From Candidatus Nanopelagicales bacterium (GTDB lineage: Bacteria > Actinomycetota > Actinomycetes > S36-B12), in NCBI GenBank assembly GCA_023253325.1, contig JALRGY010000003.1, forward strand, positions 1-59,128: a stretch of 59,128 nt of DNA, given 5' to 3'. Positions 6,478 to 53,471 of this stretch are shown piece by piece (positions within the stretch are counted from its first letter, which is position 1; each line of letters starts with the position of its first letter). The translations under genes were made by a program, and so were the position numbers. The notes below the pieces were generated by a model that did not search any database, was not told the DNA's origin, and saw nothing but the letters and a program-made list of their open reading frames with translations.

Positions 6478-7332
6478 TCACACACCAGCCGAGATCGGAC
6501 AGTTGTCAATCAAGTGAGTGGTACCCACTCGGGCTGCAATCAGGATTCGCCCGGGAACATTGGTTGCGTCCGGTTCAAGTTCCGCCTGCAGGTCGTTGCG
6601 CATGGCTGCGAGATAGGTAACTTCAATGTCACCAACGAGTTCGGCCTGTGCGGCCGCGAGTTTCTCGCGAACACTCCCCCCACACGTTTGTGCCGCTGTC
6701 AGTGCCCGAGGGATAGCAGCGGCAATGGCACGCTCAGCATCACTCAAATACGAATTGCGCGAACTCAGAGCAAGGCCATCAGTGTCACGAACCGTGGTAA
6801 CACCCCGCACCTCAATGGGGAAATTGAGATCGCGAACCATTGCACTCACCAAAGCAAGTTGCTGGTAATCCTTCTCACCAAAGAATGCGATGTCAGGATC
6901 GGTGAGGTTAAAGAGTTTGGCAACCACGGTCAGCATCCCCGCAAAATGCCCGGGGCGCGATGCCCCCTCAAGGATTGCACCAACTGGCCCGGCCTGCACC
7001 GACGTCATATCCGCCAGCGAGACACCACCGGGATACATTTCCTCAACCAACGGAGCGAACACCACGTCAACGCCTGCCTCGGTGCACAACTTCACATCCT
7101 CATGGAACGGACGCGGATATTGGGCCAGGTCTTCATTCGCGCCAAATTGTGTCGGGTTTACAAAAATGGAGACGACCACTTCTCCATCAGGCCCGACTTC
7201 CTGGCGCGCCACCTTGACCAGTTCCAAGTGCCCTGCATGCAGTGCACCCATGGTGGGGACGAATGCGCGCTTGCCGGGCTTTCGGCCAATGAATTCACGG
7301 TATTCCGAGCGAGTGTGAGCAACAATCGTCAT
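6478..7332 (-). CDS. panC: pantoate--beta-alanine ligase
   Basis: HIGH-like motif PTMGALHAGHL, FGEKDYQQ and SSRN motifs, 284 aa. Confidence 0.92.
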   Translation of the reverse strand: MTIVAHTRSEYREFIGRKPGKRAFVPTMGALHAGHLELVKVARQEVGPDGEVVVSIFVNPTQFGANEDLAQYPRPFHEDVKLCTEAGVDVVFAPLVEEMYPGGVSLADMTSVQAGPVGAILEGASRPGHFAGMLTVVAKLFNLTDPDIAFFGEKDYQQLALVSAMVRDLNFPIEVRGVTTVRDTDGLALSSRNSYLSDAERAIAAAIPRALTAAQTCGGSVREKLAAAQAELVGDIEVTYLAAMRNDLQAELEPDATNVPGRILIAARVGTTHLIDNCPISAGV

Positions 7333-8240
7333 CTCGCTCCTCCGAAGGTGTCACCGTTAAATGGTTCACCGTTGTTGTCCTTGCCCAAAGTGATGAGCAG
7401 CTGTGCGGCTTGGTCAACACTCAGGATGCCAGCATCGAGTGCGCGGTCAACACCGAGCCTGCCGAGCACCTGATAAGCATTTCGCGTGCTGGGTCGGTGC
7501 GCCAGAGCGTCGAGATGTTTATCAATTGTTGCCGAATCTCCTCGGGCCAACGGCCCGGTGAGTGCCTTATCGCCGTAGCGCAATGCATTGTCCAGTGATG
7601 CGCTCAGCAGTGGAGTGAGAAGGCGAGTCGGGTTTTCCATACCTGCCTCGCGCAGCAACGAGAGCGATTCATTCACCAACACATTCATGTAGTTGGACCC
7701 GAGCACCATGGCCGCGTGATACACCGCGCGGGCTTCCTCAGGTACCCATACCGGTTCACCACCCATCTCAACAACGAGGGCTTCAGCAACTGGCCTGACA
7801 TTTTCGGGTGCAGTGACTCCAAAAGGTGCATCATGCAACCGGCTTAAATCAACACTTGTCCCCGTGAATGTCATGGCGGGGTGAATGGCCATTGGCTGAC
7901 ACAGGGTCGCCGGCTCCAGCACGCCAATGCCGTACCCACCCGAGGTGTGAGCCACGAACTGCCCAGCCTGAAAGATTCCTGCGCGGGCAAATCCATCGAC
8001 AAGCCCTGGTAATACGTCATCAGGCACAGCAAGAATAAGTAACTCGCAATCCCCCGCCACTTGGTCCGCGGGCAAGACGGGGACACCGGGAAGGAGGGCC
8101 TCAGCCCGCAAAAGGGAGATATCTGAAACGGCAGCAACCCCCGTTATTACGTGTCCAGCACTGCGCAACGCTGCCCCCAGCACTGCACCGACCCGGCCAG
8201 CACTAACAACACCGACGCGCAGTCGTGGGGGCGAGTCCAT
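7329..8240 (-). CDS. Rossmann-like / DUF2520 domain protein (conserved upstream partner of actinobacterial panC)
   Basis: N-terminal dinucleotide fold VGVVSAGRVGAVLG. A 4-nt overlap with the panC start. The position is as in mycobacterial and micrococcal pan loci. Confidence 0.7.
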   Translation of the reverse strand: MDSPPRLRVGVVSAGRVGAVLGAALRSAGHVITGVAAVSDISLLRAEALLPGVPVLPADQVAGDCELLILAVPDDVLPGLVDGFARAGIFQAGQFVAHTSGGYGIGVLEPATLCQPMAIHPAMTFTGTSVDLSRLHDAPFGVTAPENVRPVAEALVVEMGGEPVWVPEEARAVYHAAMVLGSNYMNVLVNESLSLLREAGMENPTRLLTPLLSASLDNALRYGDKALTGPLARGDSATIDKHLDALAHRPSTRNAYQVLGRLGVDRALDAGILSVDQAAQLLITLGKDNNGEPFNGDTFGGAR

Positions 8241-8274
8241 GTTGAAAGCCTAGGGGTCACTAGCGTCACCAACT

Positions 8275-9111
8275 ATGGCCCCTTACATCCCGTGGCAGCA
8301 GGCCTGGGAATCCGCGCACTACGGGGCTTCGGGCTTTTATCGCACACAACAAAACCCAGAAAATCATTTTCGCACGAGCGTTATGGACTCCCCTGCGATA
8401 AGTCAAAGAATTTTCCAGGTCGCACTCGAAACTTTTCTCTCACTCGGCTCGCCGCCTGAGTTCACCATCCTTGATGTGGGGGCGGGAAACAATCAACTCA
8501 CACATAATCTGCATGCCGCTGCCGTGGAATCAGGCCACGACTGGACCGTTACGGCGTACAACCTCACCGATGGCGATGCCCGCGAGCTGAAACCGCGCGG
8601 AGGTAATGGTGTTGTGATCGCACATGAGTTCCTTGATGACATTCCCTGCACGGTCGCTGAAGTGGACGCAGACCTGAACTTTTGCATTGTCCTTGTTGAA
8701 CCCGAGACTGGGCATGAACAACTGGGTGTTCAGGTCAACAACAATGAACGAGTCTGGCTGGAGAAGTGGTGGCCAGCAACAGTGATTGGTGCCCGTCGTG
8801 AGGTGGGCTTGACCCGTGATCGTGCGTGGGAAACCCTGCTAAGAATTTTTGATTCCGGCAGTGCCATCGCGATCGACTACTCACACACGCTCGACCAACG
8901 GCAATCAGGGCTCTTCGATTCCGGCACCTTGGTTGGTTACTCACACGGCAGGGCCAAGCGACCTGTTCCCGATGGCTCAATGAATATCACCGCCCACGTC
9001 AGCGTTGATTCACTCATTGAGACCGGAGCCGAACTGGGACTACCGCCTGCAATTGTCGAACGACCTCACATGGCCAGTGACTTTCGGTGGCTGATTCAGC
9101 CGCTTGCATGA
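8275..9111 (+). CDS. SAM-dependent methyltransferase, MidA/NDUFAF7-like (DUF185 family)
   Basis: Family landmarks are present in order: GFYRTQQNPENHFRTS, ILDVGAGNNQL (SAM motif I), VVIAHEFLDDIPC, AIAIDYSH, GTLVGYSHGR, NITAHVSVDSL. Confidence 0.7.
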   Translation: MAPYIPWQQAWESAHYGASGFYRTQQNPENHFRTSVMDSPAISQRIFQVALETFLSLGSPPEFTILDVGAGNNQLTHNLHAAAVESGHDWTVTAYNLTDGDARELKPRGGNGVVIAHEFLDDIPCTVAEVDADLNFCIVLVEPETGHEQLGVQVNNNERVWLEKWWPATVIGARREVGLTRDRAWETLLRIFDSGSAIAIDYSHTLDQRQSGLFDSGTLVGYSHGRAKRPVPDGSMNITAHVSVDSLIETGAELGLPPAIVERPHMASDFRWLIQPLA

Positions 9112-9114
9112 GGC

Positions 9115-10251
9115 ATGCGACGATGCCGTTGTGAAAGAGAACCAGTGCGAGAGGTAGTCGTTGGCGTCGGTCTGGCTCCCGGGGACATAACCCTCGATCT
9201 CGGTGAGTTTCACCCAATTTCTCAGGGTGGGTTTCAACTGCACCTGACCCTCGAAGGTGACACGATTCTTTCTGCGCAACCGCGCATCGGTTTCATGCAT
9301 CGCGGAGCGGAGAAACTATTTGAGGCCCGCGACTACAAACAGATCATGATGTTGGCCAACCGCCATGACTGGTTTTCCCCATTTGCATCAGAACTCGGAG
9401 TTGCACTCACGTTGGAAACCGCCATGGGCATTACGCCACCCGTTCGTGCCACGTGGATTCGCATGCTCATGGCAGAACTAACACGCATGAACGTTCACTT
9501 GGCATTCCTTGTGGGGACCATTACCGATTCGCAGTCACGCGACTGCCGCACCTTGCGCGAAAAAATCACCGTGTGGTTTGAATCCGCAACTGGCAATCGG
9601 GTGCACCCCATGTTTGCCCGCATCGGTGGCATTGCGCACGACCTTGATCCAGAGCTCATTAGCGCTGCAGGAGCGATTGCCACCGACATCGCAGGCAATC
9701 TCGCTGCATGGAGAGATTCCATTAACGCGGCGGATCTTGCCGGTGTTGCGGTACTTGGCATGGAAAGTGCACTGGGTCACGGCGCGAGCGGCCCTGTTGG
9801 TCATGCAAGTGGACTGGCCAATGACCTTCGACTCGCAAGTCCATATATGTTGTATTCGGAATTGGAATTTATTGAAAACACTGCGCCCGTTGATGGTGAT
9901 GCGAGGTCGCGGTTCCTTCAACTCACACATGAGTTAGAGCAGAGCGCGAATCTCATTGATCAGTGTGTGAGTGCCATCAACGGATCCCGTGCAACTGAAG
10001 TCAATGTCGTTCTACCCAAAGTGGTACGCGCCCCTGAAGGAACCACGTACTCCTGGAGTGAAGGCCCCACGGGTATCAACGGATGGCTGTTGGTCAGCGC
10101 GGGAGATAAAACACCTTGGCGCTTGAAGTTGCGCTCGGCATCCTTCAACAACTTTGATGCACTCACCAAAACTCTTGCGGGACTTCACATTGATCAATTG
10201 CCCGCGGCAATAAAAAGTACTTTTGTTGTTATTGGTGACTTGGATCGTTAG
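9115..10251 (+). CDS. NuoD/NDUFS2-like protein (orphan complex I 49-kDa-subunit homologue)
   Basis: HPISQGGFQLHLTLEGDTILSAQPRIGFMHRGAEKLFE aligns with the NuoD signature HPAAHGVLRLVLELDGE...HIGLLHRGTEKLIE. The C-terminus VVIGDLDR matches the NuoD end IVFGEVDR. No other nuo genes occur in the window. The start may be a GTG about 30 nt downstream. Confidence 0.75.
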   Translation: MRRCRCEREPVREVVVGVGLAPGDITLDLGEFHPISQGGFQLHLTLEGDTILSAQPRIGFMHRGAEKLFEARDYKQIMMLANRHDWFSPFASELGVALTLETAMGITPPVRATWIRMLMAELTRMNVHLAFLVGTITDSQSRDCRTLREKITVWFESATGNRVHPMFARIGGIAHDLDPELISAAGAIATDIAGNLAAWRDSINAADLAGVAVLGMESALGHGASGPVGHASGLANDLRLASPYMLYSELEFIENTAPVDGDARSRFLQLTHELEQSANLIDQCVSAINGSRATEVNVVLPKVVRAPEGTTYSWSEGPTGINGWLLVSAGDKTPWRLKLRSASFNNFDALTKTLAGLHIDQLPAAIKSTFVVIGDLDR

Positions 10252-10528
10252 CACGAATGTAGGTAGCAAACCGAGCACGCAGTAGTGGCTCGATTTCGGG
10301 GTCAATCTCCCCGTGGCCAAACATTTGCTTGGCAGCGCGCACTGTCTCAATGAACGTGCCACCGATTGAACCGAGGTCACCGCCCTCGCCCTCAATAGCC
10401 ACCATGCCGGGCATGTGGCTAAAGACATCCGTGAAGAATCCAATGTCGAGTTTCTTCTCCGCCAGATGAAATGCCTTGTGGCGAAGTTCATCAAATGGAA
10501 GGTCTTCCAACGGGATGTTTTCGCTCAT
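10229..10528 (-). CDS. hypothetical acidic protein (99 aa)
   Basis: Only the ORF and coding-like codon usage support it, and I recognise no family. Its 3-prime end overlaps the convergent NuoD-like gene by 23 nt. Confidence 0.45.
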   Translation of the reverse strand: MSENIPLEDLPFDELRHKAFHLAEKKLDIGFFTDVFSHMPGMVAIEGEGGDLGSIGGTFIETVRAAKQMFGHGEIDPEIEPLLRARFATYIRANDPSHQ

Positions 10529-10605
10529 GGGTGCAGAGTACCCATAGACCCCGAGTTTCTGAACCCTGAACCCGGACGGTCACAATCTCGCCGCTGGATA
10601 GAAAG

Positions 10606-10872
10606 TTAGCGAAGTTTTTTATAGATATCTTTTCGATTTCCCACGGCAAGTACCAAGATGACGAGTTCACCTTGGTAAATCTCATAAATGACCCGATAGT
10701 CGCCTGTGCGTACACGCCATGCGAATCCCGCTCCAACCAGGGCGACTGCACTCGGTGGTCTCGGGTTGTCAGCCAATAATTCAATTGCGGCTTGGATTCG
10801 TCGACGCGCCTGAGGATCGCATTTGCGCAAGGCCCGTGCGGCATGTGGCGATAAAACCACCTGATATTTCAT
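10606..10872 (-). CDS. type II toxin-antitoxin system toxin, RelE/ParE family
   Basis: MKYQVVLSPHAARALRKCDPQARRRIQAAIELLADNPRP...RVRTGDYRVIYEIYQGELVILVLAVGNRKDIYK is a typical RelE/ParE fold sequence. The ATG overlaps the antitoxin stop (ATGA). The ORF-track start at 10905 is rejected. Confidence 0.85.
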   Translation of the reverse strand: MKYQVVLSPHAARALRKCDPQARRRIQAAIELLADNPRPPSAVALVGAGFAWRVRTGDYRVIYEIYQGELVILVLAVGNRKDIYKKLR

Positions 10873-11144
10873 AGAAGTCCGAGGTCCGCCTTGACCGACT
10901 CCCATGGGATTGGCAGTGTCTCTGTCTCGTGCATTTCGTTGCGGGCTTCCTGGGCCTCAAGAATGTCGTTCATGTCCTCGGCGAGCTCAAGAAGCCGAGC
11001 TAAATCAGATGAATCGACAATTGCGGCAACTCGCTGGCCGTGTCGCATGAGGTAGACGGGCTCGTGATTCATGCGCGCCCGGTCAATGACTTCAGCGAGT
11101 TCACTGCGCGCCTGGGTAATGCTTATTTCCGTGGGTGCACTCAT
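10869..11144 (-). CDS. type II toxin-antitoxin system antitoxin, Phd/YefM family
   Basis: MSAPTEISITQARSELAEVIDRARMNHEPVYLMRHGQRVAAIVD is the Phd/YefM N-terminal domain. It lies immediately upstream of, and is translationally coupled to, the RelE-like gene. Confidence 0.85.
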   Translation of the reverse strand: MSAPTEISITQARSELAEVIDRARMNHEPVYLMRHGQRVAAIVDSSDLARLLELAEDMNDILEAQEARNEMHETETLPIPWESVKADLGLL

Positions 11145-11148
11145 GGCA

Positions 11149-11171
11149 TTAATGTACATTATGTACATTAA
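11149..11171. promoter_or_regulatory. 23-bp perfect palindrome TTAATGTACAT-t-ATGTACATTAA, candidate autoregulatory operator/promoter of the Phd-RelE operon
   Basis: Exact 11-bp inverted arms lie 4 nt upstream of the antitoxin ATG. The element is AT-rich and contains TACATT/TACATA -10-like hexamers. Its closeness to the ATG suggests a leaderless or very short-leader mRNA. Confidence 0.6.
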
Positions 11172-12160: not shown

Positions 12161-13342
12161 CTACCTGTGCTTGTAACGACTGACAACGACATCACCGAAA
12201 TCACCTTCAATGGGCGCATCAGGTTTATGAACCCTGACATTAACGGAGACTACCTGAGGAAAATTCAAACAATCCGAGGCAATGGACTCAGCAAGTTTCT
12301 CAATCAGATCAACCGGCTCACCGGTGATTCGTGCCCTGATTGCATCAGATACTTCCGCGTAATTGACTGTATCCGCGAGGTTATCGGTTTGCGCTGCATG
12401 TGCAATGGAGATTCCCAGAGTGGCATCAATGGAAAAGTACTGTCCATTCTCGCGTTCATGTTCCAGCACACCGTGATAGCCGAAATCCCTGACACCAAAT
12501 ATTTCAATCGTGTCCATGGTGGGATTGGGGTTGACCGCATTGAGCGCCTTAATTGCGTCATCCGTTGCCTTCACATCATGAACACGCACCCCCCACACTC
12601 CTCGCTGAAGCATCTGGGCACCGATAACAGCGGATGCAATATCCCTGTCCTGCTCCGAGCGTTGATTGCCGTCGGGATCAGCCAAGAGATGCCCAAGGAA
12701 ACGCTTGCGAGAAACACCAACAAGGAGTGGAAAGCCCAGACTCTGAAGATAATCGAAACGGTGAAGCAGTTCCCAATTATGTTCAAATGTCTTGCCAAAC
12801 CCAATTCCTGGATCAAGAATAATGTTGTTCTTATGGATACCGGCAGCACGTGCGCGATCCACTTGTAACTGCAACTCGGTTCGAACATCCTGCACAACGT
12901 CGGTGTAAGCAATGTTCTCTTGCATTGTTTTGCTCGGCCCACGCCAGTGCATGAGAATTATGGGCACATTTAATTCCGCGGCAGTGCTCAACATTTCTGG
13001 GTCAGAAAGTCCGCCGCTGACATCGTTGATCATCGAGGCACCTGCATCTACCGCTGCGTGAGCGACTTGAGCATGCATGGTGTCAATACTGACGTACATG
13101 CCTCTACTAACAAGCTCCTTGATAACGGGGAGCACACGGTCAAGTTCCACATCAACAGGTATGCGCTCTGCTCCGGGTCTGGTGGACTCGCCACCGACAT
13201 CAATGATCTGGGCTCCTTGGCTCACCATGTCCTCGGCCGCGAGAACTGCCGCGTTCACATCTGCGTACCGGCCGCCATCAGAGAAAGAATCAGGTGTGAC
13301 ATTGAGGATCCCCATAATGACACCGGGATTCCGAATGCTCAT
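12161..13342 (-). CDS. folP-folB: fused dihydropteroate synthase (N-terminal about 275 aa) and dihydroneopterin aldolase (C-terminal 118 aa)
   Basis: The N-terminal part carries GILNVTPDSFSDGG, DVGGESTRPG and INDVSGG (FolP). From MDTIEIFGVRDFGYHGVLEHERENGQYF (codon 276, about nt 12517) the sequence is FolB-like. There is no stop between the two parts. Confidence 0.85.
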   Translation of the reverse strand: MSIRNPGVIMGILNVTPDSFSDGGRYADVNAAVLAAEDMVSQGAQIIDVGGESTRPGAERIPVDVELDRVLPVIKELVSRGMYVSIDTMHAQVAHAAVDAGASMINDVSGGLSDPEMLSTAAELNVPIILMHWRGPSKTMQENIAYTDVVQDVRTELQLQVDRARAAGIHKNNIILDPGIGFGKTFEHNWELLHRFDYLQSLGFPLLVGVSRKRFLGHLLADPDGNQRSEQDRDIASAVIGAQMLQRGVWGVRVHDVKATDDAIKALNAVNPNPTMDTIEIFGVRDFGYHGVLEHERENGQYFSIDATLGISIAHAAQTDNLADTVNYAEVSDAIRARITGEPVDLIEKLAESIASDCLNFPQVVSVNVRVHKPDAPIEGDFGDVVVSRYKHR

Positions 13343-22779: not shown

Positions 22780-23928
22780 CTACTCAGCGTTTGATTCCTT
22801 GAGTGTGACCTGCAATGGCGTGAACGTTTGCACTCTGATTGGTTCAGGCAGCGGGGTTAGCCCATAAGTTTCAAAGGAGCCTTGCCCAGAAAGCCTGACC
22901 AGGAATTGAACGGTGGACAGGGGCAATGGATTCGCTGGGTCATTGCACACCATCGCGTGCGCGGTTCCCATAATCGGCCAACCAATAAGCGGTTGGCCTT
23001 CTGCCAAAACAATTTTCGATGCAGCAATGTCAAAGTTTCCTTCAACGGGAACTCCGCCCGTGGCTGGTGTGGCAATAAGGCGATTTGGATCAGCCAATAC
23101 TTCCATGGCACCTGAACCGACCTTTTGCAACTGGGTGTCATCCGGGTTGATGAACTCGCCCTGAATGTCCACGGCGGCCATGGGAATCAGGTTGTTAATG
23201 GCAACCACGATCGGCAGAATCGCGACCGTGCCTTCATAGGCGATTACCCCATTGAGCAGCTCTGTTTCATCGGCAAACTTTTCACCATATTCCAAAGTGC
23301 CGCTGGGAGCGGTTGTCCACGCTTGCGGCGCTTCTTGGGAGAGCCACGTTGTCATCGCTTCTACAGACCCGGTGGGGCCATCAACACTCATTACAGCGAT
23401 TTCGGGGAGCATGGTTAAGTCATAGTCCTGATTCAGGTCTTGGATCGCACTGTCATCCCAGGTGGTGATTGATCCGGTGAGGATTCCGGCAACGACTTCG
23501 GGGCTGAGGATCAATCCATCAAGCCCGATGATGTTGTAAGACAGTGCCACGCCGTAACTGAAAATTGGCACCGTGATGACTTCACCGGTGCACATCTCAG
23601 CGAATGTTGCCGCTTGATCAGCTGATGGGGCGTGGTCGAGAATTTCGACGCCGGCGGACGTCCCTGCCGGAACTTCTGTGATCAACTGCTCAGGACACAT
23701 ACCACCGAGCGTCACGTTGACCATGTCGAGACTGCCCATGAAATCTGCAGGAACAGCAACTTCCTGTGAACCTGATTTGCAGTCAATTTGGTTTTCCACC
23801 TGAGCCGCTAGTACGTCAGGTGGCATGGGTGGAGTGCATCCGCTCAATGCTAGAGATGCTGCTAGCCCGGAGACCGCGATGAGGGCAATGCCCCAGCGAC
23901 GATTAAGAAACTGGTTCATTGCCCTCAC
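22780..23928 (-). CDS. PstS-like periplasmic-binding-fold lipoprotein with degenerate phosphate-binding motifs
   Basis: Lipobox LALSGC. The central segment ILSPEVVAGILTGSITTWDDSAIQDLNQ parallels PstS (ILGGKITKWNDREI). The PstS anion-binding loops are replaced (see findings). Confidence 0.65.
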   Translation of the reverse strand: MRAMNQFLNRRWGIALIAVSGLAASLALSGCTPPMPPDVLAAQVENQIDCKSGSQEVAVPADFMGSLDMVNVTLGGMCPEQLITEVPAGTSAGVEILDHAPSADQAATFAEMCTGEVITVPIFSYGVALSYNIIGLDGLILSPEVVAGILTGSITTWDDSAIQDLNQDYDLTMLPEIAVMSVDGPTGSVEAMTTWLSQEAPQAWTTAPSGTLEYGEKFADETELLNGVIAYEGTVAILPIVVAINNLIPMAAVDIQGEFINPDDTQLQKVGSGAMEVLADPNRLIATPATGGVPVEGNFDIAASKIVLAEGQPLIGWPIMGTAHAMVCNDPANPLPLSTVQFLVRLSGQGSFETYGLTPLPEPIRVQTFTPLQVTLKESNAE

Positions 23929-23960
23929 CTTTGGTCGTTTTTTACTTTTAAGAAACTTAC

Positions 23961-25028
23961 TTACTTGATAGCAAGAGCAAGTGACTTAGCCTTTGCAAGC
24001 ACCTTGCCACCCACTGGGACGTATCCGAGTGAAGCCGCACGCTGTGGTCCACACTTCTGGATCAAGTAGTCAGCGAACTGACGCACTCCCAAACCGTTGG
24101 GACCCTTGCCATCGGTGCGTGCCAACAGGTAGCTGAAGATCGCCACCGGGTAGGCGCCCTTGGACTTGACGTTGTAGTTCAAGCTCACGAGACCGTTGGA
24201 ACCAATGTTGGTCTGGTTCGCAAGGTTCTTGGCAGCGGATGCTGACGAGGGAGCAACGAACTCGCCGAGAGCGTTCTGAACACGAGCGGCGGGGTAGCCC
24301 TTGGCATCGCCGAGGTCGACGTAACCGATTGTTCCTTCTTTGCCTGTGACAAGTGCCATGACGCCTGCGTTGCCTTTGCCTGCGACGCTGTTTGAAGGTG
24401 GGTTGCCACCGGGAAACGCCGAAGTCATGCTGTCACCAACCTTGGCGAAGATGCTTGGTGCCCAGGCATTCAGGTACTGCAACGTGTTGTTGGTCGTACC
24501 CGAGTTGTCTGACCGGTAAGCAACGGTGATTGGTGTTGCCGGAATACCGCTTGCAATACGTGGATTGGACCTCAGGATTTCCCTGTCGTTCCACTTGGTG
24601 ATCTTTCCACCCAGAATCTTGGCAAGAGTGGTCTGCTTGAGCTGGATAGATGAACCCAGTGAGCGGCCAGTCTTCTTGTTTTTCAGGTTGATGGGGAAGG
24701 TCACAGCTCCACCGATGTTGGGAATGTACTCCCAACCAAATGATGGCTCACCGGATGAGTACTTGCTATCGGTCTGTGCGTAGTCAAAAACACCCTTGGT
24801 GAAGTTTGACTTGCCCGTGCCGGATCCGGTGCTGGTGTACTGGATTTTGAAGTTGCTCTGTGATGCATTGAAATCTGAGGCGCATGCCTGAATCCATGGG
24901 TATGGGAAGGAAGCACCACCACCGCTGATTGTTTCTGCAGCATTTGCAGGAACTGCAACCATGAGTGACGACGCTACGAGTGCAGTGGTACCTGCGACGC
25001 TTGCTGCGAGTGCAACGATTCTTCGCAC
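23961..25028 (-). CDS. pstS: phosphate ABC transporter substrate-binding protein
   Basis: GGGASFPYP, YTSTGSGTG, SDNSGTT and KITKWND motifs plus a signal peptide. I set the start at the GTG preceded by AAGGAG at 5-nt spacing. The ORF-track start is 25109. Confidence 0.9.
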   Translation of the reverse strand: MRRIVALAASVAGTTALVASSLMVAVPANAAETISGGGASFPYPWIQACASDFNASQSNFKIQYTSTGSGTGKSNFTKGVFDYAQTDSKYSSGEPSFGWEYIPNIGGAVTFPINLKNKKTGRSLGSSIQLKQTTLAKILGGKITKWNDREILRSNPRIASGIPATPITVAYRSDNSGTTNNTLQYLNAWAPSIFAKVGDSMTSAFPGGNPPSNSVAGKGNAGVMALVTGKEGTIGYVDLGDAKGYPAARVQNALGEFVAPSSASAAKNLANQTNIGSNGLVSLNYNVKSKGAYPVAIFSYLLARTDGKGPNGLGVRQFADYLIQKCGPQRAASLGYVPVGGKVLAKAKSLALAIK

Positions 25029-25129
25029 TTTTACTCCTTTATTGGGGTTGGATTTACATTTCTTGATTCGTAATCTAGGTAGTGAAAGTGGATGAAAATG
25101 ATCGCTCACTTGTCATCCGGCTAACCTTT

Positions 25130-25168
25130 AGGTGAACAGTTGGTGTCCCGCCATGAGGTTGTTCACCT
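25130..25168 (-). promoter_or_regulatory. inverted repeat AGGTGAACA-N21-TGTTCACCT in the pstB-pstS spacer (PHO-box-like half sites or a stem-loop)
   Basis: 9-bp perfect arms, each containing the GTTCACC core, lie 6 nt downstream of the pstB stop within a 145-nt spacer that precedes pstS. Confidence 0.4.
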
Positions 25169-25173
25169 GCTAG

Positions 25174-26031
25174 TTATCCAAATCGTCCATTGACGTAATC
25201 CAGAGTGCGCTGATCCTGCGGGTTGCCAAAGATTTCTGTCGTTGCACCCTGCTCGACCACGTAACCAGGCTTGTTCTCCTCGGCGAGGAAAAAGGCGGTG
25301 TAGTCAGAAACACGGACCGCCTGCTGCATGTTATGGGTGACAATGATGATGGTGATTTCTTTGGACAACTGGCGAATCGTCTCTTCGATCTTGAGCGTCG
25401 ATGCTGGATCAAGGGCGGAGCATGGTTCATCCATAAGAAGAACATGAGGATTGACAGCAAGTGCGCGAGCAATCACCAGTCGTTGTTGCTGGCCACCGGA
25501 AAGATCCCCCGCGTGAGCATTAAGTCGATCCTTAACTTCTTTCCATAGTCCCGCTGACGTCAAAGTTTGCTCAACAATGTCGTCGTGGTCGCTGCGCTTC
25601 ATGCCTGAGAGTTTCAAGCCCGAAAGAACATTGCCGCGGATCGTCATGGAAGGGAATGGATTTGGCTTTTGAAAAACCATTCCGATGGAAAGGCGAATAT
25701 GCACTGGATCAACGTTCTGGGCATAAATATCGCTGCCCTCGTATAGGACTTCACCTGCAAGCGCAGCCCCGGGGATCAATTCATGGAGGCGATTGAGCGT
25801 GCGAATGAAGGTCGACTTGCCACAGCCTGATGGACCAATAAGAGCGGTGACCGAATTCTTGGGAAACGCCATGTTCACATCCTCGAGAACCTTGCGCTTG
25901 CCAAACCACACGCTGACATTCTTGGCTTCCATCTCGGTTGTGCCAACAGGAGCTTTGCTCTTGTCAACTTCGACTTCGAGTTCACTCATGTTGTTCATCA
26001 TTTCCTGTGTCGCCGTCTTAACACTGTCCAT
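25174..26031 (-). CDS. pstB: phosphate ABC transporter ATP-binding protein
   Basis: Walker A GPSGCGKST, signature LSGGQQQRL, Walker B LLMDEP. The PstB-typical C-terminus ends in GRFG. Confidence 0.95.
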   Translation of the reverse strand: MDSVKTATQEMMNNMSELEVEVDKSKAPVGTTEMEAKNVSVWFGKRKVLEDVNMAFPKNSVTALIGPSGCGKSTFIRTLNRLHELIPGAALAGEVLYEGSDIYAQNVDPVHIRLSIGMVFQKPNPFPSMTIRGNVLSGLKLSGMKRSDHDDIVEQTLTSAGLWKEVKDRLNAHAGDLSGGQQQRLVIARALAVNPHVLLMDEPCSALDPASTLKIEETIRQLSKEITIIIVTHNMQQAVRVSDYTAFFLAEENKPGYVVEQGATTEIFGNPQDQRTLDYVNGRFG

Positions 26032-26069
26032 GTCATTTCCTTCCTAATGATTGTCAAAAGAATTGCTGT

Positions 26070-27155
26070 TTACGCGCTTCGCTTTCTTCCCCCCAGATAG
26101 CGGGTCACCGTGAACAAAATCGCTACTAAAATCATGAGCGCCAATGCCGCCCCCCACGCACGAGTCACCGCATCGGGGTAGGGCTGCGCAACGTTGTCGA
26201 AAATATATGTGGGCAGCGCCGAGATCGGATCAGAAATCGGGTTGACCACGGTTTGGTCGTTTTTGAGAGCCGTGAGCAACAGCGGTGCGGTCTCACCCAC
26301 GACGCGAGCCACGCCAAGCAAGATTGCCGTGATGATTCCTGTTTTCGCCGCAGGAATGACCACCTTGGAAACAACTCGAGCTCGGGTTGAACCCAATGCG
26401 AGTGCACCAGTGCGAAGTTCTTCAGGCACAAGACGAAGGACTTCTTCTGCGGTACGGGCAACGGTCGGCAACATCAGGATTGCATAGGCAATTGCACCGG
26501 CAAGTGCGCTCTGACGCAGGACTCCCGTGAGAATGAACACTGTGAGCACAAACAAACCCGCAACAACGGATGGAACGCCACTCATCGCTTGGACAAAGAA
26601 CCTGACATAAGGAACGGCCTTGCCCCGCACTTCAGTGACGTAGACAGCTGTTGCGATTCCCAAGGGCACCGAGATGATGACTGCGATGCCAACGATCAGG
26701 AACGTACCAATAATTGCGTGACCAATGCCACCGTAATCCAAAGGTGTGCTCGGGCTGATGTACACGCTATTTTGAAAGATGAATGATGGCCTAAAGGCCT
26801 CAATCCCCCGTGCAATGATTGTGAACAGCATTGATCCAAGAACTATCGCACTTAACGCAGTGGCACCAATGGCCAGGACGATTATGCATGAGTCAAGGAT
26901 TCCGTGTTTGCCCTTTGTTGCGAGTGCAGCCAACCCTGCCGCCACGAGTTGCAAGGGGAAGTAGATAACCGTGAGCAATATCGCTGGTGGGATGACGTCC
27001 GCTGAGTAAATTAACCCAACCACCGCGATGGGAACCACTACCGCAATGGCCGTTGCAAGCCAGAATTTTGCTGGTCGTTTACTCCACGGCCGCCGTGGCA
27101 TTTGTTCAATCGCTGGGCCATTCAAACTGTCTGGCCGCTCCATCACCGTTGTCAT
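26070..27155 (-). CDS. pstA: phosphate ABC transporter permease PstA
   Basis: Six or more TM helices, PstA-like GIGHAIIGT...VPLGIATAVYVTE, and an EAA-like loop ALGSTRARVVSKVVIP. Confidence 0.88.
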   Translation of the reverse strand: MTTVMERPDSLNGPAIEQMPRRPWSKRPAKFWLATAIAVVVPIAVVGLIYSADVIPPAILLTVIYFPLQLVAAGLAALATKGKHGILDSCIIVLAIGATALSAIVLGSMLFTIIARGIEAFRPSFIFQNSVYISPSTPLDYGGIGHAIIGTFLIVGIAVIISVPLGIATAVYVTEVRGKAVPYVRFFVQAMSGVPSVVAGLFVLTVFILTGVLRQSALAGAIAYAILMLPTVARTAEEVLRLVPEELRTGALALGSTRARVVSKVVIPAAKTGIITAILLGVARVVGETAPLLLTALKNDQTVVNPISDPISALPTYIFDNVAQPYPDAVTRAWGAALALMILVAILFTVTRYLGGRKRSA

Positions 27156-28117
27156 GATCGTAGCCGTTCTGTCCGTCGGACGATTAGATTTGCAAGTGCG
27201 TTGACAAGCAATGTGCCGAGAAACAGGAAGAAGCCCGCGGCAAGGAGTACTTGGACTTCGAACTCTCCATTGGTCTCACCAAATTTGGAAACAATGAGTG
27301 TTGCGACGGACCCACCGCCTGACTCGAGAATGTTGAAAAAGTTGATGTCAAAGACAATTTTCAGAACAAAGAAGACCGCGATTGTTTCCCCTAGTGCCCG
27401 GCCCAAGCCCAGCATGATGCCGCCGACGATTCCACCACGACCGAATGGCAGAGCGACATAGCGCAACATGGTCCACATGGAGCATCCCAGTGACTCCGCC
27501 GCATTGATCAACTCAGGAGGTGTTCGCTTAAGCACTTCAGCCGTAATCGACGTGACGATTGGAATCATCATGATCGCCAAAACCAAACCGGCCATGAACG
27601 GGGTGCCACTGAAGTTGCCCGAGTCATTGGCAAACAATGGAATCCAGCCGAGATACTGGTTCAACAACTGCTGCCATTCCTCGGCCGGTGGGACCAAAAC
27701 ATAAAAGGCCCACAATCCAATGATCACGCTCGGAATTGCAGCCATCAGATCAATCAGATTTGTCAGAATCTTGGACAGTTTGGCTGGTGCCAAGAACACC
27801 ATGAACACGGCGAGGAACAAACTGACGGGCACCGCAATCACCAACGCAATCACGGCGAGGAGAAGTGAGCCGTAAAGCATGCCCGCAATGCCATACTCAG
27901 GTGGTACGCCTGTTGTATCCCACACTGTGGTGGTTAAGAAACTCAAACCTTGGTCTTGTAAAACCGGAATTGTTTGAGCCCCCAGAAAAATTGTGATTCC
28001 AGCAAGGACTACCAGTGAAGTGAATGCCGCGCCCGTAATTGTGCGATTAAAAACTCGGTCTCCGCGGTGAGCTCTCTTGCCGCCGGAGAGATCCCGCAAG
28101 GGGGTGTCGGTTGCCAC
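27152..28117 (-). CDS. pstC: phosphate ABC transporter permease PstC
   Basis: PstC-like TM pattern and EAA loop AAESLGCSMWTMLRYVALP. 4-nt overlap with pstA. GTG start. Confidence 0.88.
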   Translation of the reverse strand: MATDTPLRDLSGGKRAHRGDRVFNRTITGAAFTSLVVLAGITIFLGAQTIPVLQDQGLSFLTTTVWDTTGVPPEYGIAGMLYGSLLLAVIALVIAVPVSLFLAVFMVFLAPAKLSKILTNLIDLMAAIPSVIIGLWAFYVLVPPAEEWQQLLNQYLGWIPLFANDSGNFSGTPFMAGLVLAIMMIPIVTSITAEVLKRTPPELINAAESLGCSMWTMLRYVALPFGRGGIVGGIMLGLGRALGETIAVFFVLKIVFDINFFNILESGGGSVATLIVSKFGETNGEFEVQVLLAAGFFLFLGTLLVNALANLIVRRTERLRS

Positions 28118-28231: not shown

Positions 28232-28711
28232 TCAGTGGTCGCTGCCTGAAATCTGTTCCAGGGCGTGGATCACGATCGGCATGAGCACGGCCATTGCATC
28301 TTTTGCCCCACCGGGCGATCCAGGGGCGTTTACCACCAGAGACTTGCCGCTTTGGCCGGCAATTCCTCGGGAGAGAGCCGCGGTAGGAATTCCGTTACTG
28401 AGTCCAAAGGCCCGGATGGCATCGGCAATGCCCGGGATCTCCCGATCAATGACTGGGATCGTCATTTCAGGGGTGAAATCCGTGGGGGTTAAGCCTGTGC
28501 CTCCTGTTGTGATCACAAGATCATGACCACTGTCAATGGCGGTTCGAAGCGCTGATGTGACGTCGGGGCCGTCGGGGATTACGACCGTGGGAGAAACATC
28601 AAATCCACCGGCTTCCAAAGCCGCAACAATGATTTCACCCGAGGTATCCGGTCGAGTTCCTGCCGCTCCACGCGTTGAAACAGTGATTACCTGAGCCTTA
28701 AATGCACTCAT
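28232..28711 (-). CDS. MogA/MoaB family molybdenum cofactor biosynthesis protein
   Basis: MoCF_biosynth fold motifs (ITVSTRGAAG, LVITTGGTGLTPTD, PGSPGGA), 159 aa. Confidence 0.85.
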   Translation of the reverse strand: MSAFKAQVITVSTRGAAGTRPDTSGEIIVAALEAGGFDVSPTVVIPDGPDVTSALRTAIDSGHDLVITTGGTGLTPTDFTPEMTIPVIDREIPGIADAIRAFGLSNGIPTAALSRGIAGQSGKSLVVNAPGSPGGAKDAMAVLMPIVIHALEQISGSDH

Positions 28712-29200
28712 TTACGAATCCGCGCTTTCACGAACCCAATGCCCTGAACGACCACCCTTTTTCTCGAGCAATTCAACGGTACGAATGTGTGCGGTTCGAT
28801 CCAATCCCTTCACCATGTCAATGAGGGTTAAGCCACCAACGGCTGCCGCGGTGAGCGCTTCCATTTCCACACCTGTGCGATCCGCCGTGGTCACGGTTAC
28901 AAGTATTGAGACACCTGAATCTTCAACAGTGAGATCAACATCAACACCATGAATTGCTAGCGGGTGGCACAGCGGGATCAATTCACTTGTCTTCTTGGTT
29001 GCAGAAATAGCTGCGATACGAGCAACTGAAAGCGCATCGCCTTTGGGGACAGATCCTGTGCGTAACTTCTCAATCACTTCTGGGGAGATAACCACAAAAC
29101 CGCGGGCGGTCGCGCTGCGCTCACTGATGTCTTTTTGTGCGACGTTGACCATGCGTGCTTCACCGGATGCATTGAGGTGGGTAAATCCTTCACTGGACAT
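28712..29200 (-). CDS. moaC: cyclic pyranopterin monophosphate synthase
   Basis: MoaC motifs (MVNV..K, KGDALSVARIAAI.A.KKTSELIPLCHPL, TGVEMEALTA). Confidence 0.92.
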   Translation of the reverse strand: MSSEGFTHLNASGEARMVNVAQKDISERSATARGFVVISPEVIEKLRTGSVPKGDALSVARIAAISATKKTSELIPLCHPLAIHGVDVDLTVEDSGVSILVTVTTADRTGVEMEALTAAAVGGLTLIDMVKGLDRTAHIRTVELLEKKGGRSGHWVRESADS

Positions 29201-29206
29201 AACAGG

Positions 29207-30421
29207 TTACCTGCCTTCTCGGATATCAATGACTTCAACAACGGTTCCTGCGTCAACAGTTGCCACACCCGCGGGTATGACAATGAAACATTCAGCTTGT
29301 GCCAAGCCGCCCATCACATGGGACCCTTGGCCCGCACCAACTGGCTCAACATGATCTGCATCAATAAACCTGCCCCGCGCAAACTGACACTTGTGTTCAG
29401 GTGAGGTCATGGACACTGCAAGTTCAACTTTTTTGCTGCGATCAGACACTGGGTCAAGTCCGCGCAACTTGCGCAACGCCGGACGAACAAATACTTCAAA
29501 TGACACATATGCGCTCACCGGATTTCCTGGCAGTGTGATGACCGGAATGCCCGGGTCCCCGAGACTGCCACAGCCTTGCGGCATACCGGGTTGCATAGCG
29601 ACCTTGTAAAACTCCGCCGAGCCCAGCTTCTGAAAAACTGCCTTGACAGGGTCGTAGGCACCCATGCTGACGCCGCCAGTAGTGATCAAAATGTCAGCAC
29701 GGTGCACTTGATCATTAAGAGCTCGTTCCAATTCCTCTTCATCATCTTGTACTGGCGCGGCCCTGTAGGCGAGTGCGCCGGCACTATTCGCCGCTGCAAC
29801 AAGCATGAAAGAGTTTGAGTCACTGATCAGGCCGTGGGCCAACGGTGTGCCTGGCTCGACGAGCTCTGTCCCCGTTGACATAACAGCCACGCGAGGCCGA
29901 GGAACCACAAGAACCCGTGATTGACCAACGGCGGCGAGTAACGCAATGGATCGTGCATTGAGAAGTGTGCCTCTGCGCAAGACGATCTCGCCGATGAGAA
30001 TGTCCTCCCCCATCTTTCGCACATACCCGCCAAAGTCGACCGATGCACTCACCGTGACGTTTTCCGTACCGCCATCGGTCATCTCGACCGGGACAACACA
30101 CTGTGTGCCATCAGGGGTTGGCGCACCTGTCATGATTCTTATCGCGGTCCCCGAGACCAAAGTTTCCAGTGATCGAAAACCGGCGGGAACGTCATCGATG
30201 ACTCGCAAAGTCACCGGATTTTCGGTGCTCGCCCCAGCAATATCTGCCTGCAGGACCGCATAGCCGTCCATGGACGAGTTATCAAATGAGGGCAACGGCC
30301 ATGGGGCCGCGACGTCTTGGGCCAACAGGCATCCGTCAACTTCGCTCAGGGGTAATTCAATGGGATGCAATGATTCGATACCGGCAAGAACTAAATCGCG
30401 GTATTCCTCAACACTGAGCAT
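29207..30421 (-). CDS. moeA: molybdopterin molybdotransferase
   Basis: MoeA/gephyrin E-domain organisation, SSMDGYAV and ITTGGVSMGAYD motifs, 404 aa. Confidence 0.9.
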   Translation of the reverse strand: MLSVEEYRDLVLAGIESLHPIELPLSEVDGCLLAQDVAAPWPLPSFDNSSMDGYAVLQADIAGASTENPVTLRVIDDVPAGFRSLETLVSGTAIRIMTGAPTPDGTQCVVPVEMTDGGTENVTVSASVDFGGYVRKMGEDILIGEIVLRRGTLLNARSIALLAAVGQSRVLVVPRPRVAVMSTGTELVEPGTPLAHGLISDSNSFMLVAAANSAGALAYRAAPVQDDEEELERALNDQVHRADILITTGGVSMGAYDPVKAVFQKLGSAEFYKVAMQPGMPQGCGSLGDPGIPVITLPGNPVSAYVSFEVFVRPALRKLRGLDPVSDRSKKVELAVSMTSPEHKCQFARGRFIDADHVEPVGAGQGSHVMGGLAQAECFIVIPAGVATVDAGTVVEVIDIREGR

Positions 30422-30566
30422 GTCTTAACCCTATCGATCCGGCCTTAACTGGCAGGACGGACAATGCGATCAACCCTGCCGATCAAACCGATCTGGAGTA
30501 ACGTTGAGGTGCTACCAGTTCCCCTCTGGTTCAGCCACCCGAATGTTTCACCAGGAAGGCTCCCTC

Positions 30567-31670
30567 ATGCGCGAAGTTTTGCCCGAGTTGCTCGCGGCAT
30601 ATGACAACGGAGGCGCGGCCATGGCCACGGTGGTCAACACCTGGCGCTCAGCCCCTCGCCCGGTCGGCGCGGCCATGCTGGTTACAGCAGACCAAGAGGC
30701 CGTGGGCTCGGTCAGCGGTGGCTGCGTTGAAGGAGCCCTCTTCGATGTCGGCATTGAAGTCCTTGACAACGCCCAACCCCAATTCCACCACTATGGAGTC
30801 AGCGACGACGATGCATTCGCGGTCGGCCTGACCTGCGGCGGACTACTCGATGTATTCGTGGAGTCAGTCACGCCAGAGTCCTGGCCCGAACTGCCTTTCG
30901 TTGCCGAGCAAATCGAAGCACAAAAACCTGTCGCGGTTGCCACCATTGTCAAAGGCCCTCACCTCGTTGGTAACCACCTCGTCATTACACCCACATCAAC
31001 CTTAGGGACATTGGGAACGCAACGACTCGATGACACTGTTCGCGAGGATGCACTTGGCATGCTCGCTGGAGGCCGAACGGCAACAATTGAATATGGCCCT
31101 GAAGGTGAACGCCTCGGTGAGGGGCTCCAAGTTTTTGTGGCAAGTTATGCGCCGCCGGCTGACATGTTTGTTTTCGGTGCAATCGATTTCTCAGCCGCGC
31201 TCGTGCGCGTTGCCAAGATTCTCGGTTACCGCGTAACGGTTTGTGATGCGAGACCCGTCTTTGCAACCAAGAAAAGATTCCCTGATGCGGATGAAGTGGT
31301 TGTCGACTGGCCGCACCGCTGGTTAGAGCAACAGGAAGTCAGTGAGCGCACCGTTATCGCTGTCCTGACTCATGACCCTAAATTCGACGTGCCCGCGATC
31401 AAAGCAGCGTTAAAAACAAATGCCGGCTACATCGGCGCTATGGGTTCACGTAAAACTCACAATGACCGCACCCGCCGACTGGTTGAAGCAGGCATCACTG
31501 CTGAGGAGATCGCTCGCATCCAGTCGCCCATTGGGCTCGACATCGGTGCGCGCACGCCCGAAGAAACCGCCATCAGCATTTGCGCCGAGATCGTGCAAAA
31601 CCGTTGGGGTGGCTCCGGCCAGAAGTTGGCCAGCACCGAAGGTCCCATCCATCCCGGTGCACCACGATGA
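30567..31670 (+). CDS. XdhC/CoxI family molybdoenzyme maturation protein
   Basis: N-terminal XdhC_CoxI segment (ATVVNTWRSAPRPVGAAMLV) and a C-terminal Rossmann-like segment (VFGAIDFSAALVRVAKILGYRVTVCDARP). Start trimmed to MREVLPELL. The ORF-track start is 30504. Confidence 0.8.
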   Translation: MREVLPELLAAYDNGGAAMATVVNTWRSAPRPVGAAMLVTADQEAVGSVSGGCVEGALFDVGIEVLDNAQPQFHHYGVSDDDAFAVGLTCGGLLDVFVESVTPESWPELPFVAEQIEAQKPVAVATIVKGPHLVGNHLVITPTSTLGTLGTQRLDDTVREDALGMLAGGRTATIEYGPEGERLGEGLQVFVASYAPPADMFVFGAIDFSAALVRVAKILGYRVTVCDARPVFATKKRFPDADEVVVDWPHRWLEQQEVSERTVIAVLTHDPKFDVPAIKAALKTNAGYIGAMGSRKTHNDRTRRLVEAGITAEEIARIQSPIGLDIGARTPEETAISICAEIVQNRWGGSGQKLASTEGPIHPGAPR

Positions 31671-31909
31671 ACGTAACTGTAAATCTCTTTGCCGCCGCAC
31701 GACATGCAGCTCAACGGGACAGCGTCACAATGGATGCGACGACGTTGAATGAATTGCGTCTGTTACTCGTCAAACAATTTCCTGCCTTGGTTCGGGTTAT
31801 CCCTCAATGTTCCATGCTCGTTGATGGACTGTCCTTCGGCATAGACGGCGATATCGAACTTGTTGATGGGGCCAGGGTTGATGTAATGCCACCGTTCTCT
31901 GGTGGCTAA
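31667..31909 (+). CDS. moaD: molybdopterin synthase sulfur carrier subunit (MoaD/ThiS family)
   Basis: 80-aa beta-grasp-sized protein ending in MPPFSGG (C-terminal Gly-Gly). The ATG overlaps the xdhC-like stop (ATGA). Confidence 0.8.
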   Translation: MNVTVNLFAAARHAAQRDSVTMDATTLNELRLLLVKQFPALVRVIPQCSMLVDGLSFGIDGDIELVDGARVDVMPPFSGG

Positions 31910-31948: not shown

Positions 31949-31991
31949 GGGCATTGGCGTGCTGAAAATTGACCTCGCCGTCCAGCGTGTG

Positions 31992-53443: not shown

Positions 53444-53471
53444 TAATTTTCCCGTTCCACTATATGGCTCA

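Follow-up and report, generated by a model that had tools for sequence, protein, structure and literature searches.

The subject of this analysis is a pair of adjacent genes in a 59,128-nucleotide stretch of DNA from a Candidatus Nanopelagicales bacterium (contig JALRGY010000003.1), which is called the window throughout. The first gene encodes a compact methyltransferase of the MidA/NDUFAF7 family, and the second encodes a paralogue of NuoD, the 49-kDa subunit of respiratory complex I, which is called NuoD2 here. The two genes and the sites within them that matter for their interpretation are as follows:

8275..9111, plus strand: S-adenosylmethionine (SAM)-dependent methyltransferase of the MidA/NDUFAF7 family (PF02636, COG1565), compact form, 278 amino acids (Pfam, profile search against PDB, AlphaFold2 (AF2) model with Foldseek)
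8473..8487, plus strand: predicted SAM-binding motif I, D67-V-G69-A-G71 (DVGAG, within TILDVGAGNNQL), at the end of predicted strand beta1 (from the translation)
8620..8646, plus strand: post-beta4 family signature A116-H-E118-F-L120-D121-D-I-P124 (AHEFLDDIP; from the translation)
9115..10251, plus strand: NuoD paralogue of the NuoD2 type, 378 amino acids, 49-kDa/NuoD fold, signature HRGAEK...NRHDW (PF00346, AF2 with Foldseek)
9223..9225, plus strand: Gln37 codon (FHPISQG) in the beta1-beta2 loop, at the position of the quinone-ligand His (bovine His59; "gefhpisqggfql" aligned with "gpqhpaahgvlrl")
9301..9303, plus strand: Arg63 codon (HRGAEK), counterpart by alignment of bovine/human NDUFS2 Arg85 (Yarrowia R121); predicted methylation site
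9358..9372, plus strand: NRHDW signature, in which Arg83 keeps bovine Arg105 and Trp86 replaces Tyr108 of the canonical DRLDY (alignment)
9604..9606, plus strand: His164 codon (in GNRVHPMFARIGG), aligned with the His of the canonical "GARMH" motif (bovine His190 by residue count; "gnrvhpmfarigg" with "garmhaayirpgg")

The reading frame of the methyltransferase ends with TGA at 9109-9111, a spacer of 3 nucleotides (nt), GGC, follows, and the ATG of the NuoD2 frame lies at 9115. A second plausible NuoD2 start is GTG 9145 (codon 11), which has GAAAGAG in front of it and aligns with the N-termini of most NuoD2 homologues, MR..(V/A)G(V/I)GLAP. The nearest relatives of NuoD2 (about 90% identity) have called starts 4 to 6 codons off the ATG of the window. 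The NuoD2 start is thus 9115 or 9145 and the intergenic gap 3 or 33 nt, and with either start the genes are the tight co-directional neighbours that the original prediction described. On the other side, the start codons of the methyltransferase gene and of its divergent neighbour, a DUF2520 gene, are only 34 nt apart (8241-8274). When 7900-10900 was scanned for promoters and terminators, no signal exceeded shuffled expectation, and no sigma-70-like promoter was detected. The annotated start of one of these two divergent genes may be wrong, or the promoters may lie inside coding regions.

The first protein belongs to the DUF185/MidA family, as had been proposed from its ordered landmarks. It passes PF02636 Methyltransf_28, the model of this family, with 50.1 bits against a cutoff of 23.3 (E 3.4e-13), in a match that spans just residues 106-256 of the 278. 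No NCBIfam model matches it, and a single-sequence phmmer search against PDB returned nothing meaningful. A profile of 35 homologues reaches the PDB entries 4F3N/4G67 (COG1565, E 1.8e-15), 1ZKD (DUF185, 5.1e-11) and 5ZTZ (1.1e-07), the last being the Dictyostelium NDUFAF7 homologue MidA. The AF2 model is confident, with a predicted local distance difference test score (pLDDT) of 93 and a predicted template modelling score (pTM) of 0.91. The top six Foldseek matches are all MidA structures (4G67, 4F3N, 1ZKD with two chains, 5ZTZ and 5ZU0) with template modelling (TM) scores of 0.67-0.78, or 0.54-0.60 when normalised to the MidA target structures. Beyond them, the next family has a TM of 0.33, and other methyltransferases all score 0.4 or less. 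The model, Foldseek and the profile thus agree on a class I (seven-beta-strand) methyltransferase fold with MidA-specific architecture, to which, among solved folds, the proteobacterial MidA structures 1ZKD and 4F3N come nearest. The names of homologues in databases include "SAM-dependent MidA family methyltransferase". A 2018 study in Cell Reports reportedly dealt with the structure of MidA and its proteobacterial origin.

Both sequence motifs of the methyltransferase are conserved among the 35 homologues. In DVGAG, which follows the strand at 64-67 of the model, D67 never varies, and at least 90% of the homologues keep G69 and G71; the aligned motif in 4F3N, 1ZKD and 5ZTZ is GAGTG / GPGRG. 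In AHEFLDDIP, the type of peptide pattern that also served as the query for fetching MidA-like relatives, A116, E118, L120 and P124 never vary, and at least 90% of the homologues keep D121. Its counterparts are "gnEvLDamPv" in 4F3N, "ANEYFDVLP" in 1ZKD and "AQEFFDALP" in 5ZTZ, with the common pattern (A)NE(F/Y)(F/L)DA(L/M)P. Because these motifs are conserved, an active enzyme is predicted. The protein does not have the full-length MidA architecture of the longer members (about 320-430 amino acids): solved MidA chains have about 390-430 residues, whereas the present enzyme lacks most of the C-terminal helical region. It belongs to a compact subclade of 271-288 amino acids, while most actinobacterial homologues are longer (median 330), and is a compact form rather than a non-member of the family. 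Taken together, the sequence features point to a genuine family member that is probably active.

The second protein matches PF00346 Complex1_49kDa (E 1.8e-41, 142.4 bits against a cutoff of 24). Its sequence aligns at E of about 1e-42 with the NDUFS2/NuoD/Nqo4 chains found in many structures of complex I, and its AF2 model (pLDDT 88, pTM 0.89) gives Foldseek TM scores of 0.74-0.84 to such chains. The best NCBIfam models are NuoD models, every one of which stays below its curated cutoff. Measured against the NuoD equivalog cutoffs, the bit scores are 242.7/360 for NF004739, 223.1/522 for NF008974 and 217.6/459 for TIGR01962. About 22 residues of canonical NuoD (between query positions ~288 and ~304) and the N-terminal extension are missing. 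The earlier view of this protein as a NuoD homologue therefore stands as regards Pfam family and fold, but it is a paralogue and not an orthologue of NuoD, with scores below all NuoD cutoffs and with the quinone ligands replaced.

The NuoD2 family of Actinomycetota was defined by HR[GS]xEK ... [ND]RHDW, invariant Arg63 and His164, a length of about 360-390 amino acids, and a gene position between the pan/nad and fol groups. The protein in the window fits this definition with HRGAEK, NRHDW and a pan/nad-fol position. When the best 150 matches in a library clustered at 50% identity were considered, 144 representatives were informative, and the H84/W86 signature (RH.W; mostly [ND]RHDW) was found in 103 of them. 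The remaining representatives are nearly all DR.DY-type NuoD or NuoCD-like. Mean column identity for NuoD2 is 59% across distant Actinomycetota. By these sequence measures, NuoD2 stands apart as a paralogous family of considerable size, spread over more than 100 clusters at 50% identity. It is uncharacterised, and automatic annotation labels its proteins "NADH-quinone oxidoreductase subunit D" in spite of the missing quinone ligands. The closest relatives of both proteins of the pair come from aquatic metagenomes, and the few named ones are from "Candidatus Nanopelagicales bacterium".

Large subunits of the group 4 [NiFe]-hydrogenase type (MbhL, the NuoD-like subunit of MBS, HycE) resemble NuoD2 in fold and in length (about 360-390 amino acids). 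Chains of this type (6U8Y chain L, 6CFW chain L, 7Z0S chain E) align with NuoD2 in one stretch, but at E of 1e-31 to 1e-18, which is much weaker than the 1e-42 for NDUFS2/NuoD. A NiFe site is not indicated because no Cys stands in an invariant column of a 26-sequence alignment. A hydrogenase-type large subunit is ruled out by this lack of invariant Cys, and the best matches are to NuoD.

The residues of NuoD2 were numbered against mammalian complex I by aligning query positions 23-288 with chain positions 45-318 of the 430-residue mature chains, with no gap before residue 63. Three residues that surround cluster N2 in complex I (bovine R85, R105 and H190) are aligned with Arg63, Arg83 and His164 of NuoD2, and all three are invariant. 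Arg63 is Arg in 203/203 NuoD2 sequences and in 101/101 informative 50%-cluster representatives with a residue at this position, and Arg83 and His164 are each conserved in 203/203. Counts of position 164 in canonical sequences were left aside because MAFFT indels make them unreliable. The His164 position is presumably that of the N2-associated redox-Bohr His (Yarrowia H226). Arg63 lies in the internal block of lowest confidence in the AF2 model (pLDDT 67 for residues 61-70). The quinone head-group ligands of the 49-kDa subunit are H59 and Y108 in the bovine enzyme. Neither is present in NuoD2, which has Gln37 and Trp86 at these positions. Trp86 is found in 203/203 sequences, and the His59 position is H in 137, Q in 60 and N in 4 of the 203 and highly variable in the 50%-cluster representatives. 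Because the Tyr is always replaced by Trp, and the His by Gln here, canonical quinone reduction by NuoD2 is not expected. The functional roles of the quinone-ligand and N2-proximal residues of complex I have been described (PMC8042128).

NDUFAF7 symmetrically dimethylates Arg85 of NDUFS2 (PMC3829151, PMC3750175), and MidA/NDUFAF7 binds NDUFS2 directly in Dictyostelium and human (PMC9006661). The same symmetric dimethylarginine occurs at Arg65 of Paracoccus denitrificans Nqo4, so that alphaproteobacterial MidA and Nqo4 provide a bacterial precedent for this modification on a NuoD-type protein (PMC3750175). The actinobacterial pair shares with the mitochondrial system both protein families, the target Arg in HRGxEK (Arg85 corresponding to Arg63), and the MidA fold with its motifs. 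The original idea of a possible stand-alone bacterial version is supported in this respect: the arginine methylated in NDUFS2 is present and invariant in NuoD2. In contrast to mitochondria, the genes are adjacent bacterial genes outside any nuo operon, and methylation is predicted. NuoD2 also differs from NDUFS2 in the Trp and Gln at the two ligand positions and in the missing internal and N-terminal segments described above.

The modified protein of Paracoccus is a genuine complex I subunit, whereas the arginine considered here is on a paralogue. The canonical NuoD of Mycobacterium smegmatis (8E9G chain D) and Thermus Nqo4 read LHTG(I/F)EK in their PDB sequences, with Thr at the Arg85 position, and for Thermus Nqo4 this Thr has also been stated in the literature (PMC3750175). 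The M. smegmatis protein, which belongs to the sole actinobacterial complex I structure solved, is therefore not arginine-methylable at this site. Where actinobacterial sequences were checked, the arginine-bearing protein is NuoD2 and not canonical NuoD.

A 2025 paper states that the function of MidA in prokaryotes was "only inferred in silico" (PMC12455994). Literature on COG1565/DUF185/Methyltransf_28, nuoD2 and nuoB2/nuoH2 yielded no description of a MidA-nuoD2 pair, the 2018 Cell Reports paper on MidA structure being outside the scope of this search. No protein arginine methyltransferase other than NDUFAF7/MidA is known from mitochondria, and proteobacterial midA is not known as a neighbour of nuoD.

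Conservation of the two genes as neighbours across Actinomycetota had been named beforehand as a refuting test, and it was found. One genome per species was scanned for NuoD2, and MidA-like genes were located by tblastn around the 80 best loci. A MidA-like gene lies within 10 kb of NuoD2 in 74 of these 80 species loci. It is on the same strand, directly upstream and within 300 nt in 43, farther upstream on the same strand in 24 more, and on the opposite strand in 7, typically convergent in Streptomyces. The other 6 loci have no MidA-like gene, and 2 of these have less than 500 nt of upstream sequence. In a reciprocal survey of 80 metagenome contigs anchored on the MidA-like gene, NuoD2 is present on 20/20 contigs with at least 5 kb downstream; the contigs without NuoD2 are mostly too short. 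One freshwater contig of the acI type has the same genes in the same order as the window, with a 12-nt spacer inside the pair. Chance cannot explain a pairing that turns up in dozens of species. The coupling is asymmetric: on the contigs long enough to tell, MidA was always found with NuoD2, and NuoD2 is sometimes found without MidA. Such asymmetry would be expected of an accessory enzyme tied to its substrate.

These data favor, with a probability of roughly 0.55, a conserved actinobacterial module in which a minimal MidA/NDUFAF7-type enzyme methylates Arg63 of NuoD2 before NuoD2 docks to a NuoB-type Fe-S partner. This reading is based on the identity of the two families, the conserved adjacency, the invariant target residue, and the Thr of canonical mycobacterial NuoD. 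The methylation itself, its site and the Fe-S partner are inferred. The pair would be co-transcribed, and translation coupling is possible with either spacer. The methyltransferase would bind newly made NuoD2 and methylate the guanidino group of Arg63. This arginine is predicted to lie in the flexible beta3-alpha1 loop (HRGAEK), and the product would probably be symmetric dimethylarginine, as it is in mitochondria. The modified NuoD2 would then dock on a NuoB-type subunit with a [4Fe-4S] cluster, and Arg63, Arg83 and His164 would form the second shell of the cluster of this partner. Candidates for the partner are an N-module-less Nuo2-type membrane complex as in Streptomyces, the canonical Nuo subunits, or none. 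The conserved pair suggests a possible bacterial counterpart of the mitochondrial assembly step. It places a MidA enzyme beside a paralogue of the one substrate that is established for this enzyme, and the target Arg of the paralogue is invariant. It is also a compact, genetically testable system for the recognition of NuoD-type proteins by MidA and for the effect of methylating an N2-proximal arginine.

Genes for the first of these candidates are annotated in Streptomyces, where, according to two transcriptome papers, a second complex I gene set (nuoA2, B2, H2-N2) lacks the N-module and "nuoD2" is encoded apart from the nuo2 operon (PMC3765725, PMC8388888). These papers list the nuoD2 gene and give no function, MidA link or RHDW signature for it (PMC3765725, PMC8388888). 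In the surveyed Streptomyces loci L002, L026 and L038, NuoD2 is flanked by pan genes on one side and fol genes on the other and is separate from further nuo genes. In S. coelicolor, nuoD2 presumably has the same position. The published nuoD2 is probably a member of the NuoD2 family, on the basis of the matching description and of this synteny. The separation of nuoD2 from the nuo2 set means that NuoD2 may have partners encoded elsewhere. Calling the gene of the window an orphan NuoD is right in that no nuo operon surrounds it, but has to be qualified in view of the second partial nuo cluster listed for Streptomyces. The pair bears in turn on whether the N-module-less second nuo set of Streptomyces forms a functional complex.

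Several observations weigh against methylation of NuoD2 by its neighbour. The methyltransferase lacks about 60 C-terminal residues (before the final strand) and a segment near beta2 that are present in longer homologues, and after beta2 it has Asn96 in place of the acidic, ribose-binding residue usual in class I methyltransferases. The arginine is kept in E. coli NuoCD and is unmodified there (PMC3750175), so its presence alone is no proof of modification. Expression of a Wolbachia MidA in E. coli reportedly led to methylation of DNA (PMC12455994), so that MidA proteins of bacteria may have other substrates as well. No MidA-NuoD2 fusion of the Rosetta-stone kind was found among unusually long matches. 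Co-transcription is not universal because the genes are often convergent in Streptomyces and 3-6 kb apart in Streptosporangiales.

Loci without MidA belong to the same side of the balance. The locus L169 (9074-11095) has the synteny of the window and an FtsH that is 82% identical, and in it NuoD2 directly follows DUF2520, with no MidA in 21 kb. L004 (1-1596) is arranged likewise, with DUF2520 followed by NuoD2 and without a MidA-like gene. A divergent NuoD2 subfamily beside lsr2, the gene of a nucleoid protein (L164-L168), with the loop HP(S/T)R(A/T)G and with RHDW followed by H or Q, has no MidA-like gene in view, and murT/gatD follow NuoD2 in L167. Arg63 is retained in all of these (L169, L004, L164-L168), which indicates that it is conserved for reasons beyond methyl acceptance. 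The L169 protein reads AGRHAW where the window reads ANRHDW, and its identity is 39% against 43-48% in comparators of equal FtsH identity; as a sign of faster NuoD2 evolution in the absence of MidA, this is too small an effect, from one usable case. The L169 type may be a lineage that lost MidA naturally.

The MidA-less loci also suit an alternative in which the genes are neighbours by descent only. The pair would then belong to an ancient gene block, the MidA-like enzyme would act on another protein, on canonical complex I or on nucleic acid, as the DNA methylation by Wolbachia MidA would allow, and NuoD2 would work alone. Indeed, the pair is set in a synteny block, nadB-panC-DUF2520 / pair / DUF3180-folK-folB/P-folE-ftsH, and within 10 kb of NuoD2 there is a DUF2520 gene in 67, PanC in 63 and FolK in 54 of the 80 loci. 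Since DUF2520 and PanC are also near NuoD2, the co-occurrence is partly inherited gene order, and the convergent pair in Streptomyces agrees with this explanation. MidA is nevertheless the tightest-linked neighbour of NuoD2, within 300 nt in 46/80 loci; the pan and fol genes of the block come that close in at most 1, and a 99-residue open reading frame (ORF), orf99, in 15. The pair also stays adjacent when its flanks change, as in Kitasatospora (fol genes more than 10 kb off) and in L061 (pan genes on the other side), and the genes are still paired in the Streptomyces loci although they are convergent. The presence of NuoD2 on every sufficiently long MidA-anchored contig also speaks against mere descent. 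In addition, the family of the neighbour is the sole experimentally known substrate family of MidA, its homologous target Arg is invariant, and canonical mycobacterial NuoD lacks that Arg. Neighbourhood by descent only is rather unlikely, yet it has to be taken seriously as a rival.

A further possibility, about which we are doubtful, is that NuoD2 is no respiratory subunit and forms with its dedicated MidA enzyme a self-contained bacterial module for arginine methylation. With its rebuilt pocket (RHDW and the variable beta1-beta2 loop), NuoD2 might then have a new task, for example sensing redox state or a ligand, or acting as a carrier for docking to an Fe-S protein, and methylation of Arg63 would be a switch or a maturation step. 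If this were true, the pair would be the first genetically defined bacterial enzyme-substrate pair for arginine methylation that is independent of complex I.

NuoD2 could instead be a soluble, stand-alone protein in a stable heterocomplex with the MidA-like protein, either as a scaffold or specificity subunit for a third substrate or with the MidA-like protein acting mainly as a chaperone. The direct binding of MidA to NDUFS2 makes such a complex conceivable, and the missing N-terminal extension and internal residues, the lost quinone ligands, the hypervariable beta1-beta2 loop and the occurrence of the pair in aquatic Nanopelagicales-like lineages are compatible with a protein that works outside complex I. 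Gene calls or Pfam scans found no other nuo genes near NuoD2 at the eight places covered (L001, L002/L003, L019, L073, L164-L171) or in the window; at the remaining surveyed loci, the screen covered just the genes of the block. At L019 and L073, where nuo2 genes were expected beside a MidA-less NuoD2, there were only glycosyltransferases, a sulfotransferase, a molybdo-dehydrogenase and a two-component system. In contrast, the invariant N2-flanking residues Arg63, Arg83 and His164 are hard to explain without an Fe-S partner, and the second nuo set of Streptomyces lacks a D subunit while nuoD2 is encoded elsewhere (PMC3765725, PMC8388888). A conserved gene for a third partner is not evident either, as orf99 is convergent and goes with the fol side. 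We regard the stand-alone complex as quite improbable. The idea, also raised in the original prediction, of a functionless decaying remnant of a nuo operon or of an acquired mitochondrion- or alphaproteobacterium-type pair can draw on the isolation of the gene from the rest of the nuo genes, on bit scores that do not reach the NuoD equivalog cutoffs and on the lost quinone ligands, but it is scarcely credible in view of two intact frames with confident models, many invariant positions in 203 sequences, the spread over more than 100 clusters at 50% identity with a mean column identity of 59%, and the retention of the pair in aquatic Nanopelagicales-type metagenome lineages.

Two long proteins were considered as fusions and rejected. 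The N-terminal extension of P0207 (574 amino acids) is a mis-called start, and P0099 (478 amino acids) is a MidA with low-complexity inserts. A 90%-identity cluster represented by P0140, a NuoD2 of 361 amino acids, also holds MidA-like proteins of 286-288 amino acids (P0421, P0426, P0429-P0431) with no similarity to NuoD2. This mixed cluster could reflect a fused or read-through ORF call that bridges both genes, or it could be a clustering artefact.

The immediate surroundings of the pair contain the following features:

7329-8240, minus strand: Rossmann-like + DUF2520 protein, divergent 5′ neighbour of the methyltransferase gene (Pfam)
10229-10528, minus strand: orf99, acidic ORF of 99 amino acids, convergent with NuoD2, no Pfam or NCBIfam match
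10606-11168, minus strand: ParE toxin / Phd-YefM antitoxin pair, between DUF3180 and orf99
12161-13342, minus strand: fusion of dihydropteroate synthase and dihydroneopterin aldolase (Pterin_bind + FolB), 393 amino acids

According to Pfam scans of the window ORFs, the DUF2520 gene adjoins panC, nadB, nadC and coaX. The genes 3′ of NuoD2 are all on the minus strand: the 99-residue ORF, the ParE/Phd pair, DUF3180, folK, the folP-folB fusion, folE, ftsH, hpt and tilS. The 3′ end of orf99 overlaps that of NuoD2 by 23 nt, with an identical overlap in the acI-type relative L170. It is always convergent with NuoD2 and goes with the fol/DUF3180 side where the block splits. Its identity is 89-94% to loci where NuoD2 has about 61% and MidA 43-48%, and it is thus far more conserved than its neighbours. 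The ParE/Phd pair is a lineage-specific insertion in an otherwise fixed housekeeping block, because it is missing from the collinear acI-type relatives L170 and L171. The Pterin_bind + FolB fusion is kept in L170/L171; the two are separate genes in L169 and L164-L168, and in Terrabacter FolB is fused to HPPK instead.

The rest of the window was covered by Pfam scans of 56 long ORFs in 59 kb (at least 150 amino acids, with shadow ORFs over matched genes excluded, together with three 99-residue ORFs at 10229-11168). Four groups of genes were recognized:

22780-28117: ATP-binding cassette (ABC) transporter with two PBP_like_2 binding proteins, beside the molybdenum cofactor cluster
28232-34088: molybdenum cofactor biosynthesis cluster (MoCF_biosynth, MoaC, MoeA, XdhC, MoaA-type radical SAM, MobA-like)
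46067-50900, minus strand: NuoE/NuoF/NuoG-homologous trio, 36 kb from the pair (Pfam)
51761-58386, minus strand: one-carbon/electron-transfer group (formate-tetrahydrofolate ligase, electron-transfer flavoprotein (ETF) beta + alpha, 844-residue DAO+GCV_T protein, GntR/FCD regulator)

No nuoA, nuoB, nuoC or nuoH-N gene was found among the 56 ORFs, so the earlier statement that the 59 kb hold no other nuo genes is right for these genes; the NuoE/NuoF/NuoG-homologous trio is present. The proteins of the trio carry 2Fe-2S_thioredx (167 amino acids), Complex1_51K + NADH_4Fe-4S (519 amino acids), and Fer2_4 + NADH-G_4Fe-4S_3 + Molybdopterin (925 amino acids). By its domain make-up, the trio is of the NAD-linked formate dehydrogenase kind (FdsG/B/A type) and not complex I. 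Its members are the sole N-module-like genes in the window, and fdhD adjoins them on the upstream side (trio with fdhD 46067-51757, minus strand). The 844-residue DAO+GCV_T protein is dimethylglycine/sarcosine dehydrogenase-like. The molybdenum cofactor cluster is consistent with a molybdo-formate dehydrogenase farther along the window.

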